Below, in pieces: positions 33,953 through 43,483 of a stretch of DNA of 64,000 nucleotides (position 1 is the first letter of the stretch; every line of letters starts with the position of its first letter). The notes under the pieces are model-generated. The model searched no databases. It saw only the letters and a program-made list of their open reading frames with translations, and had not been told where the DNA came from. Source of the DNA: Candidatus Poribacteria bacterium (lineage in GTDB: Bacteria > Poribacteria > WGA-4E > PCPOR2b); the NCBI GenBank assembly GCA_965208675.1, contig OZ242351.1, positions 384,001 through 448,000 on the forward strand, read 5' to 3'. The position numbers and the translations under genes are program-made.

Positions 33953-36421
33953 ATGAAGAAGACGAATTCAATGTTAATTTTCGCGGTGTTAATTGTAGTT
34001 GGTACGGGACTGCAAGCAATCAACCCCAACGCTTCGGGCGGAAGCGAATCAGGGTTCACCGACAATACTCTCATCTTCGGGCGCGGCGGAGATTCGCTTA
34101 CGCTGGATCCCGCCCTGTTGACCGACGGAGAATCGGCAAAAGTTTGTGAGATGCTGTATGACACGCTAATCCAATACAGAGATGAAACCACCGAACTTGC
34201 ACCTGCATTAGCGGAAACGTGGGAAAGTTCCGCCGATGGGTTGACGTGGACGTTTTACCTGCGCCAAGGTGTCCAATTCCACGACGGTACACCGTTCGGT
34301 GCGGACGCGGTTGTATTCTCGCTCTCTCGTGCGAACACCGTATTTCGTGATTTCCATGCTGAATTCATCAATCAGATTATCGCACTGGATGCGTATACTG
34401 TGCAGATACAACTCAAAAAATCCTACGCGCCTTTCATTAGCACATTAGCAGGGACATCGTATTCTATCGTGAGCCCGGACGCCGTTCAACGCTACGGTGA
34501 CAATTTTGGAGATGTTAACGCCGTCGGTACAGGCCCCTTTAAGTTCGTCCAGTGGGATAAGGGCGACAGCGTCGTCCTTGAAGCAAACGAGAATCATTGG
34601 GCGGGGCGGCCGGCGCTGGATCGGTTTATATTTCGGTCCATACCGGATAACTCGGTTCGGCTGATGGAGCTTCAGGCGGGCAATATCCATGCTATGGAAT
34701 TCCCCAATCCTGAAGAGATACCGGTTATTGAAGCCGATCCACTGATTGAACTAGTCACGCAATCCAGTTTGAACGTCGGGTATTTAGCCATGAATTTCGA
34801 CAAGCCGCCTTTTGACAATTTGAAGGTGAGGCTTGCCATCAACCACGCCATAAACAAACCCGATATTATTGAACGGCTCTATCAAGGCACAGGCATACCC
34901 GCGAAGGGGCCGATACCGCCAACTCTCTGGAGTTACGACGAGGCTATTCAAGACTACGAATATAATCCGGAACTTGCAAGGCAACTTCTCGCTGAAGCGG
35001 GATTTCCCGACGGTTTTGAGACCACGCTCTGGGCATTACCGGTACCGCGCCCGTACATTCCGGATGGCATGGCGCTAGCGGAAGCGTTACAATCCGACCT
35101 TCGGGAAGTTGGGATAGAAGCGGCGGTCGAAACGTTCGACTGGGGTACATACATTGATAAGACCAAAATCGGCGAGCACGATATGGCAATGTTAGGCTGG
35201 ATTGTATCAGAGGGCGACCCAGACAGTTTTTTCTACTATCTGCTGAGCAAGACCTACGCGGAGAAACCCGCTTTCAATATCGCTTTCTATCGCAGCGACG
35301 AAATGCAAGATATACTGGATCGAGCGAGAACCAGCACTAATCGCGGGGAACGTACTGAACTCTACCGGCAAGCGCAAGCGATATTCCACAGAGACGCACC
35401 GTGGGTGCCGCTAGCTCATGCCCAAAGGCTTCTTGTGGTCAATTGGCGAGTGAAGAATCTTAGGCTTGCTCCTACAGGATGGAAATACCTTCGCAGTTTG
35501 TCGTTGGAAGAAGACACGACTTCGCTTTATGTTTCGTCGCTCTCTCAAGGTCTCAACACGATTTCCATTCCCTTGCAACCCGATACGCCGATGAACGCTC
35601 GGACGCTGTCGGATATGGTCGGCGCAACGGCGGTCATTACCCTAGACGCCGCCAACCAACGATTTGTCGGTTGGACACCCGACGCACCTCACGACGGATT
35701 TCCGATTGAAGGCGCAAACGGCTACATCGTCAACCTACCGGAAGCGCGGGAGGTGGCATTCGTCGGCAAAGCTTGGGCAAACCAAGCGCAAGCCGCCGCC
35801 GCACCAAGCCTATCGCACAACGCCGACACGTGGGCGTTTGTGGTTAGCGGGTACTTAGAAAGCAGTCGAAACCTAGGCGGCTATCTCGTCACGGTGCAAA
35901 ATTTAACCACAGGCGATGTCATGACAGGGAGTGTGAGAGACGGTTACTTCGCCGCGGCTACTGCAAATCTCGCACGCCAGAGCGTGGTGAATGTTGGCGA
36001 CACTTTAGAGGTCACCGTCACCGATACGACCGGCGAAATGGCTTCGAAGCCAGTAGTTTTCACGGTTACGCGCGACGCGCTCCTAAACGCAGTACTTCCC
36101 GTAATGCTTGATGGCGTAGGCGTACCGAAGCAAACGATGTTATTGCAGAACTATCCTAACCCGTTCAACCCTGAGACATGGATACCGTATCACCTTTCGG
36201 AGGCAGGCGATGTGTCGATAACTATTTACGATACGGTGGGGCAACGTGTTCGGATACTATCGCTTGGCTTTCAGTCGGAGGGTTACTATCAAAGCCGTTC
36301 GCTCGCCGCCTATTGGGATGGACGGAACGACTTGGGTGAGCGGGTACCGAGCGGTATTTACTCCTATCACCTCTCCGCCGGCGATTATACTGCTGCGCAG
36401 CGGATGGCGATTGTCAAATAG
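33953..36421 (+). CDS. family-5 (DppA-like) solute-binding protein fused to a FlgD-Ig/T9SS-type C-terminal module
   Basis: LAPALAETWESSADGLTWTFYLRQGVQFHDG, GTGPFKF, VRLAINHAIN; then GLNTISIPL...LLQNYPNPFNPETWIPY. Confidence 0.88.
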   Translation: MKKTNSMLIFAVLIVVGTGLQAINPNASGGSESGFTDNTLIFGRGGDSLTLDPALLTDGESAKVCEMLYDTLIQYRDETTELAPALAETWESSADGLTWTFYLRQGVQFHDGTPFGADAVVFSLSRANTVFRDFHAEFINQIIALDAYTVQIQLKKSYAPFISTLAGTSYSIVSPDAVQRYGDNFGDVNAVGTGPFKFVQWDKGDSVVLEANENHWAGRPALDRFIFRSIPDNSVRLMELQAGNIHAMEFPNPEEIPVIEADPLIELVTQSSLNVGYLAMNFDKPPFDNLKVRLAINHAINKPDIIERLYQGTGIPAKGPIPPTLWSYDEAIQDYEYNPELARQLLAEAGFPDGFETTLWALPVPRPYIPDGMALAEALQSDLREVGIEAAVETFDWGTYIDKTKIGEHDMAMLGWIVSEGDPDSFFYYLLSKTYAEKPAFNIAFYRSDEMQDILDRARTSTNRGERTELYRQAQAIFHRDAPWVPLAHAQRLLVVNWRVKNLRLAPTGWKYLRSLSLEEDTTSLYVSSLSQGLNTISIPLQPDTPMNARTLSDMVGATAVITLDAANQRFVGWTPDAPHDGFPIEGANGYIVNLPEAREVAFVGKAWANQAQAAAAPSLSHNADTWAFVVSGYLESSRNLGGYLVTVQNLTTGDVMTGSVRDGYFAAATANLARQSVVNVGDTLEVTVTDTTGEMASKPVVFTVTRDALLNAVLPVMLDGVGVPKQTMLLQNYPNPFNPETWIPYHLSEAGDVSITIYDTVGQRVRILSLGFQSEGYYQSRSLAAYWDGRNDLGERVPSGIYSYHLSAGDYTAAQRMAIVK

Positions 36422-36445
36422 CCTATCTCGAGTTGGAAAGGCAAA

Positions 36446-36937
36446 TCAACCGCCTACCTTGACTCGCGCCCACAGTGTTAATCGTTTTAACTTTGGGTGG
36501 ACAGAAGAGGTTTTGTCGACTGGGTGCCCCGCCTGTTCCCAAGCGAAAAACCCACCCAACAGTACCGCAACATTCTCTCGCTTAAAGCCGAATTTATCAA
36601 TTAGCTGGCGTGCCGCACGGACACTGGTGGCTTCAGCCGGTCAGCTTCAGTAAAATACGACAAACGGCTCATTTTTGAGCTCCTGATGCCTCGCAGAGAT
36701 GTCGCCAATCGGCATAGAGATGGCATTCCGAATATGGCCGTTGTCGTAGGCACCTTTGATACGGACATCTATAATCACGACATCATCGCCTGCATCCAAC
36801 CGGGCTTTGAGGTCCGCGACCGTAATTCGCTGCACATCTTCTTCAGGGGGCGCTTGAGCAATCGAAAGTGACGCGAAAAACGTTTGAAGGAGAAGGACGG
36901 TCAACAGGAAGAATATGCACCTATCTGTTTTTTTCAT
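36446..36937 (-). CDS. secreted rhodanese-like protein, probable double selenoprotein (TGA at 36647-36649 and 36641-36643)
   Basis: IIDVR...YDNGHIRNAISMP...VVFY-TGA-S-TGA-PAEATSVRAARQLIDKFGFKRENVAVLLGGFFAWEQAGHPV... The rhodanese C-terminal signature lies only after the two TGAs; 163 aa to the TGA at 36446. Confidence 0.85.
36610..36624 (-). promoter_or_regulatory. candidate bacterial SECIS hairpin
   Basis: GTG-T(bulge)-CC-GTGC-GG-CAC starting 16 nt after the second TGA; possible lower GCTG/CAGC stem. Confidence 0.45.
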
Positions 36938-37025
36938 CGGTTTTTCTCCAAGTGTTGGGTTTTGACATTTGTAATTTTAAGGTGTTCGTCGCCTCAGTGT
37001 CAAGAGTTTTCTGACATTCGTCAAA

Positions 37026-38591
37026 TCATAGGTTTTCCATCTCACCCGTCATCAGCAGCCCAATTGCCGGCAGTTCATGTCGAAACGGTGTTGCGTCCGT
37101 CAGCCCGCCGTTGTACATCACGAGGATGCGGTCGCTGAGTGCTAGCAATTCATCTAACTCAGTGGAGATTAGCAATACGGCACAGTGATTTCGCCGCTGC
37201 TCAAGAAGCCGCTGCCGCACATAGTCCGCCGCGCTAATGTCCAAACCGCGCGTTGGGTTGACTGCAAGCAGCAGTTCCGGTGATTGCGACAGCTCCCTAG
37301 CAATGAGCACCTTCTGCTGATTACCGCCGGATAAGAATTTTACCGGCAATTTCCGATCGGGAGTCCGAACATCATAGCCCCGGATGAGTTCGTCGGCATC
37401 AGCATTGATGCGTTTTCGATCCAACAGCGGGCGCCAACTTTTGAGAAATTTGGAACCGCTCATGAGGTTTGTTTGATAGTTTTCGAGCTGCTGAATGTTA
37501 AGAATTAGATTTTCCGCAACTGTGAAATCGAGAATTAGACCGGCGTTTTGGCGATCATTGGGGATATATCCATATTTTAATCGGCGTATTTGATTCGACA
37601 ATAAGTTGGTGACTGATTTCCCGTTTAAAAGAATTTCACCGTTGCGTGGCTTTCGCAGTCCCATAATGGTTTCTGCGAGTTCAATCTGACCGTTGCCGTC
37701 AACCCCGGCGATTCCGACGATTTCGCCCGTATTCACCTCAAGCGAACAACTGTTTACTGCAATCCGGCCTCGACTTCCGACGACAGTTAGGTCTCGGATT
37801 TGGAGGTGTGCGGTGCCTACGGCGTGCGGTTCCCGTTCGAGCTGCGGCGGGTCATACCCAACCATGTGTTTCGCCAGGTCTCGCGGCGATGCATGTGCCG
37901 CATGTGTAGTCACGACCCGCTTGCCGCGGCGCAGGACTGTGATTCGATCGCTAATTTCCATGACCTCTTTGAGTTTGTGGCTGATGAAGATTATCGAGTT
38001 GCCTTCTGCCTTCAGGCGGCGCAGGATGGTGAAGAGTTCATGGGTTTCTTGAGGGGACAGGACGGATGTCGGCTCGTCAAGCACTAAAATTCGCGGCTTG
38101 ATGGAATCATCCATCGTTGGATTGACCAGCGCCTTTAGAATTTCAACGCGTTGCTGCATCCCCACCGACAATTGCCAGATTTTGGCGCGCGGTTCGATCA
38201 ACAATCCATAACGGCGGGAAAGTTCAAGCACTAGTGCCTCAACCGTCCGCCGCTTTAGGCGGAATTTCCCGTGTCTGAAATTATGCGCGATGTTTTCGGC
38301 AACGCTCAACGTGGGAACTAATGCAAAGTGTTGATGAACCATGCCTATCCCGTGTGCAATTGCCGTGTTCGGCGAATCAATAAGAGCCGGATTGCCGTCA
38401 ATCCAAATCTCACCCTCATCGGGTTGGCACAAGCCGTAAATCGTATTCATAAGGGTTGATTTTCCGGCTCCATTCTCACCGAGTACGGTGTGGACTTCAC
38501 CGCGGCGCAAAGTTAGATCCACGCGGTCAACGGCGAGGTTTTTTCCAAATGCCTTAGTGATGCCGCGAAGCTCAAGTGCGTAAGGTGTCAA
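37026..38591 (-). CDS. ABC transporter ATP-binding protein (CUT2 nucleoside/sugar type, two ATPase domains)
   Basis: [32 protein letters not shown]. Confidence 0.92.
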
Positions 38592-42403: not shown

Positions 42404-43483
42404 ATGAGAACAGCGCATGACAAATCAACGCGCCGCAAATTGCACGGCAAGCAACACGAACTGCGTGTATTCGCTCGGCTCAGCGCGATAGTTGTTTTGG
42501 TTACAGTCTTGAGTTGGACGGGCGCCGAGGCGGCAAGCCGGTATGCGTGCGATTTCTTGACACTGGGCGTAGGTGCCCGACCGTTAGGCATGGGCGGCAG
42601 CTTCGCGGCAGTCGCAGATGATTCCACCGCCGCTTACTGGAATCCCGCGGGACTCGGGCGGTTGCGCCATTCCGAAATCGCTTTCATGCATTCCAGCCTC
42701 GGTGAGCTAGATAGCTACGATTTCGTCAATTACATCCATCCGCTCGGTAAAAGTGAATCCATCGGACTTAGTTGGTTGCGCGTTGGCATTGATGACATAC
42801 CAATCACGAGCTTAAGAGTTGCGTCCCGGTCGATAGGTCCGACCAATCGCCCCGAAATTAGGGGGACTTTCAGCAACACCAACAACGCCTTCTTATTCTC
42901 CTACGGCAGACGAATCGGATTTGACTTATCGTCGAAGCGAATAGATTTACTCGTCGGCGGTAATGCCAAGTTTCTTTACATTTCTGCGTTAGGAAATAGA
43001 AATGCGATTGGTGTAGGGGGGGATGCCAGCTTGCTCTGGACAACAAACCCTGAAATGCCAAGTCGATTTTCCATCGGGATGGTCGCGCAAGATTTCTTTA
43101 AGACAAAATTATACTGGAACAATCCGCCCGAACATCCGGATCAGGCTGCGAACACAGATACAATCAACCCGAATCTTAAGGTTGGTGTCTCGTTTGGTCA
43201 AGATATCGCCCCGCTAAATAGCCGTGTGTTGTTGACAATCGATACCGATAGCCTATACGCCTTTGAGATGCACTACGGCGCCGAGTATGTTTTCGCCGAT
43301 CTTCTTTCGCTTAGGGCCGGCGTACAGGAGCGCAAAGGTATAAACACAATTCGGCTGATGACGGCGGGTGCAGGTTTCCGTCTCTCTTTCTTGACAGGGG
43401 CGGCCTTCTCCATTGATTATGCGTTTCTCGGCAACGACGAACTCGGGAATAGCAATCGAATTTCGCTGATGACAAGGTTCTAA
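42404..43483 (+). CDS. PorV/UPF0164-like outer-membrane beta-barrel
   Basis: FLTLGVGARPLGMGGSFAAVADDSTAAYWNPAGL signature; C-terminal Phe. Confidence 0.8.
   Translation: MRTAHDKSTRRKLHGKQHELRVFARLSAIVVLVTVLSWTGAEAASRYACDFLTLGVGARPLGMGGSFAAVADDSTAAYWNPAGLGRLRHSEIAFMHSSLGELDSYDFVNYIHPLGKSESIGLSWLRVGIDDIPITSLRVASRSIGPTNRPEIRGTFSNTNNAFLFSYGRRIGFDLSSKRIDLLVGGNAKFLYISALGNRNAIGVGGDASLLWTTNPEMPSRFSIGMVAQDFFKTKLYWNNPPEHPDQAANTDTINPNLKVGVSFGQDIAPLNSRVLLTIDTDSLYAFEMHYGAEYVFADLLSLRAGVQERKGINTIRLMTAGAGFRLSFLTGAAFSIDYAFLGNDELGNSNRISLMTRF

Follow-up and report, generated by a model that had tools for sequence, protein, structure and literature searches.

A rhodanese-related sulfurtransferase carrying a U-x-U motif (U or Sec, selenocysteine) was reported from the metagenome of the Olavius algarvensis symbionts as a selenoprotein in which "a second Sec evolved" (Zhang and Gladyshev, 2007; PMC1976440); that paper devotes one sentence and a figure to it, and the passages dealing with this protein give no analysis of how its two UGA codons are served. 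A 2026 review (PMC13188914) distinguishes in its Table 1 five rhodanese selenoprotein forms, namely UxxS, UxxG, CxU (NF041203), a further UxxG and TsoB UxxxxU, and that table has no U-x-U row. We report here on a gene for a predicted Sec-x-Sec rhodanese from a Candidatus Poribacteria bacterium (GCA_965208675.1), located in a 64,000-nt stretch of contig OZ242351.1 (384,001–448,000, forward strand) which was analyzed as a whole and is referred to below as the window. Judged from its sequence, the gene is that of a genuine double-Sec rhodanese, a type known since 2007 (PMC1976440).

The gene resembles the Olavius case in that both are rhodanese-family selenoproteins with a Sec-x-Sec motif, predicted by comparative genomics in symbionts of marine invertebrates. 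Unlike the Olavius host, a deltaproteobacterial symbiont, the host here belongs to the Poribacteria, and the likeness is one of motif and family description, not of compared sequences (PMC1976440, passages on this protein). A preliminary description of the window had considered the U-x-U form unusual. This view is not upheld, the form having been in print since that study and being present as well in Chloroflexota lineages analyzed here. The best NCBIfam match of the window gene is NF041203 (rhodanese_LYCAU; 7e-23, 80.7 bits, profile positions 7–125 of 126), the "rhodanese-related (seleno)protein" that makes up form 3 (C-x-U) in the table of the review. In both, the latter of the two reactive loop positions (Y-C-x-U; codon 99 here) is Sec, but NF041203 has one Sec, whereas in our gene the first Cys is Sec as well, giving two, and most Poribacteria forms add a basic C-terminal tail. 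As the window gene and all 15 relatives tested (15/15, 66–104 bits) score below the curated cut-off of 115, the clade surrounds this narrowly drawn equivalog.

A rhodanese domain, two Sec residues and a probably extracytoplasmic redox setting are shared with TsoB (NF045694, rhodanese/DsbD fusion-like, UxxxxU). The window gene nevertheless reaches just 29.5 bits against the TsoB cut-off of 805, its Sec spacing differs, and it has a single domain, without the DsbD-like membrane domain. Two close in-frame UGA codons predicted as Sec are likewise found in U-x-x-U selenoproteins (a Prx-like thiol:disulfide oxidoreductase, the NF041115 metal-binding protein and the FmdB family), which have unrelated folds and UGA codons 9 nt apart, unlike the 6 nt of our gene (PMC13188914, Table 1; PMC2398784). 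Beyond the 2007 mention of the motif, the parts of the literature covered by our search contain no analysis of one selenocysteine insertion sequence (SECIS) serving U-x-U, and among publications on Poribacteria with selenocysteine none deals with this gene by title or abstract.

Reading frame and predicted protein

Starting from an ATG at 36937 on the minus strand, the frame reads ...VVFY-TGA-AGC-TGA-CCG-GCT-GAA... and, after the second TGA, continues for 64 sense codons up to a TGA stop. Genetic-code table 11 yields just a 96-amino acid (aa) open reading frame (ORF; 36647–36937). That the ORF list stops at VVFY while the frame goes on had been pointed out in the preliminary description, and translation of the minus strand confirms it. 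The two in-frame codons, 97 and 99, are referred to as UGA1 and UGA2.

When both TGA codons are read through, the protein matches the rhodanese profile PF00581 over aa 39–135 (5.3e-16, 59.3 bits; cut-off, 22.2), and a genome-level search with the rhodanese profile gave 56.1 bits with two TGA codons inside the match. An AlphaFold model built on 34 aligned sequences has predicted local distance difference test (pLDDT) values of 96–98 across the rhodanese domain; residues 97 and 99 are placed in the loop (97–102) between a strand (93–96) and a helix (103–116). The top Foldseek matches are single-domain rhodaneses (3nhv: E 1e-9, template modelling (TM) score 0.58/0.70). Sequence and fold searches among solved structures found no C-x-C rhodanese as a template for the loop. 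The preliminary description had placed both TGA codons at Cys positions, one of them catalytic. The former holds, as Cys homologues read Y-C-S-C-P-N-E; the position of the catalytic Cys is divided, since in HMMER alignments that of domain 2 of 1yt8 falls, gapless, on position 99 and that of 6mxv, via a two-residue gap, on position 97.

Residues 1–29 have the layout of a Sec-type signal peptide, and export is probable from this reading by eye. A similar layout, again by eye, is common to orthologues and relatives outside the phylum, in agreement with the exported rhodanese proposed earlier; AlphaFold models a single helix over aa 3–27. At the other end, the basic tail is kept in most Poribacteria orthologues, U-x-U and C-x-U alike (loci L036, L066 and L071 have none), and is absent from the relatives outside the phylum. 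The model gives it low confidence (pLDDT 57–68), with a short helix at 155–161; it may serve as an amphipathic anchor or for docking. Taken as a whole, the gene very probably encodes an intact, probably exported, single-domain rhodanese with the predicted loop Tyr-Sec-Ser-Sec-Pro-Ala-Glu. One U-S-U orthologue on a short contig, L070, has at least 80 stop-free codons beyond the rhodanese domain and may be a fusion form.

Conservation of the two UGA codons

Six-frame searches of whole genomes found a match holding exactly two TGA codons in 26 of the 29 genomes of the same family. The search was extended to 176 Candidatus Poribacteria genomes, in which 49 orthologous loci from 48 genomes were read: 40 are Y-U-x-U and nine Y-C-x-U. 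Two TGA codons at the same positions are beyond chance in this alignment, because the identical pair recurs in 40 of 49 loci at protein identities down to about 40%; the earlier argument that two independent nonsense mutations at these codons were unlikely is thereby borne out. Position 99 is invariably TGA (49/49), and position 97 toggles between TGA and TGT/TGC. The gene is not universal in the phylum, since its largest family (f4, 112 genomes) holds just weak, paralogue-grade matches.

A site that alternates solely between UGA and Cys codons is a classic selenoprotein signature. In the 61 relatives with a preserved motif, UGA1 alternates exclusively with TGT/TGC. The loop of Cys homologues is Y-C-[STA]-C-P-x-E (Y-C-S-C-P-N-E in P0011 and P0013; P0060 and P0073 also have Cys at both positions), so that homologues with Cys or Sec at the two sites, which the preliminary description had named as a check, do exist. 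In one relative, P0052, the loop is Y-C-S-R, and the Arg at the clade's Sec position may stem from a TGA-to-CGA change. The search of protein cluster representatives brought up mainly multi-domain rhodaneses, with a handful of informative single-domain matches. A maximum-likelihood tree, for which the two motif columns had been masked, requires three changes of the C-x-U label, at least two of them forced by well-supported branches, and U-x-U and C-x-U genes form sister pairs on it (L066/L070, support 97/88; L069/L071, 90/80). The root of this tree is unreliable, so the direction of the switches was not read from it, and L036 sits on a long branch.

Relatives beyond the phylum were sought by scanning species-representative genomes with a peptide pattern located just after UGA2. 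The scan gave 48 loci, 35 of which were already counted (34 from Poribacteria plus L111, whose sequence is the same as that of L068), and 13 from other phyla: five U-x-U, seven C-x-U and one C-T-T. Four of the U-x-U loci are distributed over three Chloroflexota/Anaerolineae/Dehalococcoidaceae lineages and the fifth comes from one other bacterium; the C-x-U loci include Gemmatimonadetes, Chloroflexia, Vicinamibacteria, Actinomycetes, Anaerolineae and Acidobacteriota, with L-Y-C-A-U among the reads. All 12 loci with a TGA carry the hairpin described in the next section.

Purifying selection extends past the two codons. The ratio of non-synonymous to synonymous substitution rates (dN/dS) is 0.07–0.36 after the TGA codons (11 of 13 pairs computable) and 0.14–0.32 before them, where three pairs have no value owing to a saturated synonymous distance, a one-codon indel in these pairs also shifting the fixed register. 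The segment downstream is not decayed in relatives, as a broken gene had been expected to show in the preliminary description, but is constrained like the segment upstream. Synonymous change is in addition suppressed in codons +3 to +13 (pS 0–0.27, compared with 0.19–0.98 in the flanks): codons TAC, AGC, GAA, AGT, GCG and GCA are shared by 25 of 25 family sequences, and hardly any nucleotide varies between the Tyr codon and a point 40 nt past it. In metagenome contigs, a 43-nt block (36610–36652) is the sole part still matched by diverged relatives. Contigs from three other DNA studies bridge both TGA codons and, among the matches listed, show no difference between 36581 and 36658. Both codons are also bridged, likewise with no difference listed there, by a 374-nt contig that belongs to a roughly 89%-identical relative and comes from a metatranscriptome library, although contigs cannot prove transcription.

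The genome possesses all four sel genes, the presence of which the preliminary description had left to be checked. Genes selA, selB and tRNA-Sec (selC, 77.5 bits) form one cluster, with selB between the other two, and selD has its own in-frame TGA (K-C-A-G-U) followed after about 12 nt by a hairpin. Among the matches to the six families searched for in the genome, six more contain one in-frame TGA at a redox-motif position. Four are AhpC/TSA matches (contexts T-S-G-U-T, T-T-S-U-G-P-C, G-Q-W-U-P-S-C and G-T-W-U-P-N-S), one is CMD/AhpD-like (C-R-Y-U) and one is a second rhodanese (C-Y-U-Q-G-G). Counting selD and the U-x-U rhodanese, this sponge symbiont has at least eight candidate selenoprotein genes.

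The SECIS-type hairpin and proposed decoding of two UGA codons

A hairpin of the SECIS type, GUGUC-CGUGC-GGCAC, begins 16 nt after UGA2 and 22 nt after UGA1, so that its loop is reached after 21 and 27 nt, respectively. Across 49 distinct sequences, drawn from Poribacteria and other phyla, pairing of the core is complete (245/245 cells), and four of the five pairs vary on both sides (GC 48/CG 1; UA 34/CG 13/UG 2; GC 49; CG 34/UG 13/UA 2; CG 46/UA 3). None of 500 shuffles reaches the covariation score of the six-pair structure, and slid controls pair in at most 54%. The loop follows the pattern N-G-K-K-Y, its second base (G38) being invariably G and followed by U or G, and the hairpin columns are identical in C-x-U and U-x-U genes. 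Bacterial SECIS (bSECIS) criteria given in the review ask for a loop of 3–9 nt, an upper stem of 4–16 bp, a G in the first two loop positions and a UGA-loop distance of 16–37 nt (PMC13188914, section concerned); the hairpin (5 nt, 5 bp, 21/27 nt) fits them for both UGA codons. The folding energy is −5.1 kcal/mol for the hairpin by itself and, for the stretch leading through it, −8.7 when starting at UGA2 and −11.4 when starting at UGA1, the criterion being −7.5 or lower over an unspecified span.

The preliminary description had seen a bulged-U stem with a GTGC tetraloop starting 16 nt after the second TGA. The start stands. The bulge and the tetraloop are not favoured by the comparative data, which support the 5-bp GUGUC/GGCAC stem with loop CGUGC, because most orthologues have C in place of the supposedly bulged U, pairing with the same G (CG 34, UG 13, UA 2), and because the extra C-G pair of that version disappears in sequences with G or A as the next base. 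Two other structures were rejected as conserved elements: a long alternative fold of genus g7 is impossible in the window's own sequence, and orthologues do not preserve AGCUG/CAGCU, the outer stem of the fold obtained for the window. A search of Rfam with 36300–37100 gave no match at E up to 1. We know of no bacterial SECIS family in Rfam, so this null result says little.

Our preferred reading, to which we give a probability of about 0.7, is that one minimal 5-bp SECIS programmes SelB-dependent insertion at two UGA codons 6 nt apart, so that an exported rhodanese would hold a vicinal Sec-x-Sec centre, potentially a diselenide, and that the first of the two codons flips repeatedly between Cys and Sec in Poribacteria and Chloroflexota while the second stays Sec. 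Bound to this one hairpin, SelB would deliver Sec-tRNA(Sec) first at UGA1 and, two codons later, serve UGA2. The U-x-U forms would have arisen from C-x-U by a single TGY-to-TGA change served by the pre-existing SECIS; the hairpin columns are the same in both forms, and most simply a SECIS in place for UGA2 later took on UGA1 as well. That both UGA codons are read as selenocysteine is almost certain from the comparative data, and the Y-U-S-U-P-A-E loop with one SECIS region put forward in the preliminary description agrees with the conserved codons, the Cys/Sec interchange, the purifying selection downstream, the covarying hairpin, the complete sel machinery and the use of TGA as a normal stop elsewhere.

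Several observations weigh against this reading. The 27 nt from UGA1 to the loop exceed the 16–24 nt of the other candidates in the genome, distances which come from unverified single-sequence hairpin picks and are ambiguous for one gene; because 27 nt lies beyond this range, decoding of UGA1 may be less efficient. The covariation counts include related sequences, and the events are fewer than the cells. Single-sequence thermodynamics are unremarkable (z-scores −0.4 to +1.3), and in genus g7 the better score (−17.5) goes to an alternative fold of 11 bp. The pattern used in the scan outside the phylum overlaps the codons that encode the hairpin and finds solely relatives keeping that stretch. 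As to function, no neighbour gene is conserved across genera, so there is no operon support.

A broken gene, be it a pseudogene with two nonsense mutations or a product of sequencing or assembly error, would fit the 96-aa ORF of table 11 and the 95–96-aa fragments listed in databases. We give this explanation practically no weight, given that the same two codons are found in 40 genomes and in Chloroflexota, that dN/dS downstream is as low as upstream and that contigs of other studies agree. Equally negligible is a reassigned code in which TGA would stand for an amino acid (Trp or Gly), as suggested by two database translations, P0030 (Y-W-G-W) and P0038 (Y-W-S-W), that put Trp at both TGA codons. 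TGA ends 677 of the 2005 long frames of the genome (34%), the next in-frame stop following after a median of 13 codons, and it is the most frequent stop of the 49 orthologues themselves (TGA 29, TAA 10, TAG 9; one runs on into further sequence). P0038, moreover, continues past the TGA that ends L068, as a wrong code in the source gene call would give. Pseudogene, assembly error and alternative genetic code are, for practical purposes, all excluded.

Two further explanations accept selenocysteine and concern the way in which UGA1 is served. UGA2 might be the sole Sec codon, with UGA1 too distant from the hairpin and passed by near-cognate suppression or mostly terminating, as a throttle on expression. 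UGA2 is invariant and its 21 nt are typical of the genome's candidates, in the middle of their range, while UGA1 is both the variable position and the more distant one. We nonetheless regard this as unlikely: UGA1 exchanges with Cys codons alone in the 61 relatives, its 27 nt lie inside the published window of 16–37 nt (PMC13188914, as given there for bSECIS elements), and U-x-U predominates in two large families and turns up again in Chloroflexota, which ill fits a codon that would mostly end translation ahead of the active site. Slightly less probable still is a division of labour between two RNA elements, in which a small GGC-NGAA-GCC stem would aid UGA1, through pausing or as a second SelB site, and the main hairpin would serve UGA2. 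By eye in the alignment, 35 of 40 U-x-U genes have the small stem intact, against one of nine C-x-U genes, and its sole free pair (18–27) covaries, at two synonymous sites (GC 22, CG 5, GU 2, UG 2, AU 1, UA 1, unpaired 7). However, the two remaining pairs of this three-pair stem are dictated by the Ala-Glu-Ala codons, its loop starts 11 nt after UGA1 and thus outside the 16–37 nt model of the same review section, the C-x-U genes without the stem belong mostly to one clade (f3), leaving very few independent events, and the stem is broken in the U-x-U genes L036, L069 and L070. Insertion at both codons from the one hairpin remains the reading we prefer.

Table 1. Features of the rhodanese gene in the window, and positions of the other candidate genes with one in-frame TGA.
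Feature	Coordinates	Strand	Remarks
Whole gene	36446..36937	−	163 codons + TGA stop; predicted single-domain rhodanese selenoprotein, U97 + U99
Probable Sec-type signal peptide, aa 1–29	36851..36937	−	Basic n-region, hydrophobic core, A-Q-A; by eye
Rhodanese homology domain, aa 39–135	36533..36823	−	Pfam PF00581, spans both TGA codons
UGA1, codon 97	36647..36649	−	TGA in 40/49 phylum orthologues, TGT/TGC in 9
UGA2, codon 99	36641..36643	−	TGA in 49/49 phylum orthologues and 12/13 outside-phylum relatives
Small stem GGC-UGAA-GCC	36629..36638	−	2 nt after UGA2; 78% of cells paired
SECIS-type hairpin GUGUC-CGUGC-GGCAC	36610..36624	−	5-bp stem with U.G pair, 5-nt loop
Conserved basic C-terminal tail, K-x-K-R-x-T-L-W-x-x-x-K	36449..36517	−	Orthologue alignment
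True stop, TGA	36446..36448	−	Comparison of orthologue stop codons
Six family matches with one in-frame TGA	C1: 1464681-1465049(−), 4351412-4351753(+), 4575962-4576351(+), 150211-150594(+), 2150501-2150695(−), 2700172-2700492(−)

Predicted function, annotation and genomic surroundings

The enzyme may work outside the cytoplasm, either as a transferase of sulfur or selenium that uses selenol chemistry or as a redox centre, a proposal we make with less confidence. Residue 99 is proposed as the key nucleophile because it is always Sec in the clade; residue 97 would be its partner, the two forming a diselenide where both are Sec (U-x-U) and a selenenylsulfide in the C-x-U forms, and a periplasmic electron carrier would recycle the Sec centre. 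Among the Cys relatives, P0048 combines a rhodanese of the Cys form with a cytochrome c domain in one fusion protein, and several have N-termini which, by eye, look like signal peptides or lipoproteins. In 11 of 33 clustered full-length loci, all of genus g7, a flavin adenine dinucleotide (FAD) disulfide reductase gene directly follows. The cytochrome c fusion and this reductase hint at an extracytoplasmic redox role, and the predicted exported Sec-x-Sec rhodanese, together with the cytochrome c fusions, would point to periplasmic sulfur/selenium redox chemistry.

If the preferred reading is true, the clade is a natural experiment on the spacing tolerated by a SECIS and on the effect of bringing a second selenium into a selenenylsulfide redox pair. 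It offers a comparative case in which one bacterial SECIS apparently serves two adjacent UGA codons, and the repeated Cys/Sec exchange beside a fixed Sec bears on the question of why selenium is used over sulfur.

The gene had been predicted to be missed by standard annotation, and this is what the databases show. In a word-indexed protein search, nine of 12 matches end exactly at the first TGA, one of them named Candidatus Poribacteria, while P0030 and P0038, both cluster representatives, carry Trp at both TGA codons, which indicates a wrong code in the source gene call. Every public protein record examined for the gene is wrong, and sponge-symbiont proteomes therefore miss a conserved selenoenzyme.

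The g7 reductase (L017:1966-3456 and 10 other loci) is a class-I FAD pyridine-nucleotide disulfide oxidoreductase, whose gene starts a few codons behind the end of the rhodanese gene and shares its frame and direction. The closest models are those of lipoamide dehydrogenase and MerA, with scores below all cut-offs. No such gene lies beside the window's gene, whose neighbours are a sugar-type ATP-binding cassette (ABC) ATPase gene and a convergent gene for a solute-binding protein. The latter (33953-36421, plus strand) is an SBP_bac_5 protein with a C-terminal FlgD Ig-like domain, and a gene of the PorV/PorQ family is found 5.5 kb away (42404-43483, plus strand); the Ig-like domain and the PorV/PorQ gene hint at type IX secretion cargo in this genome.

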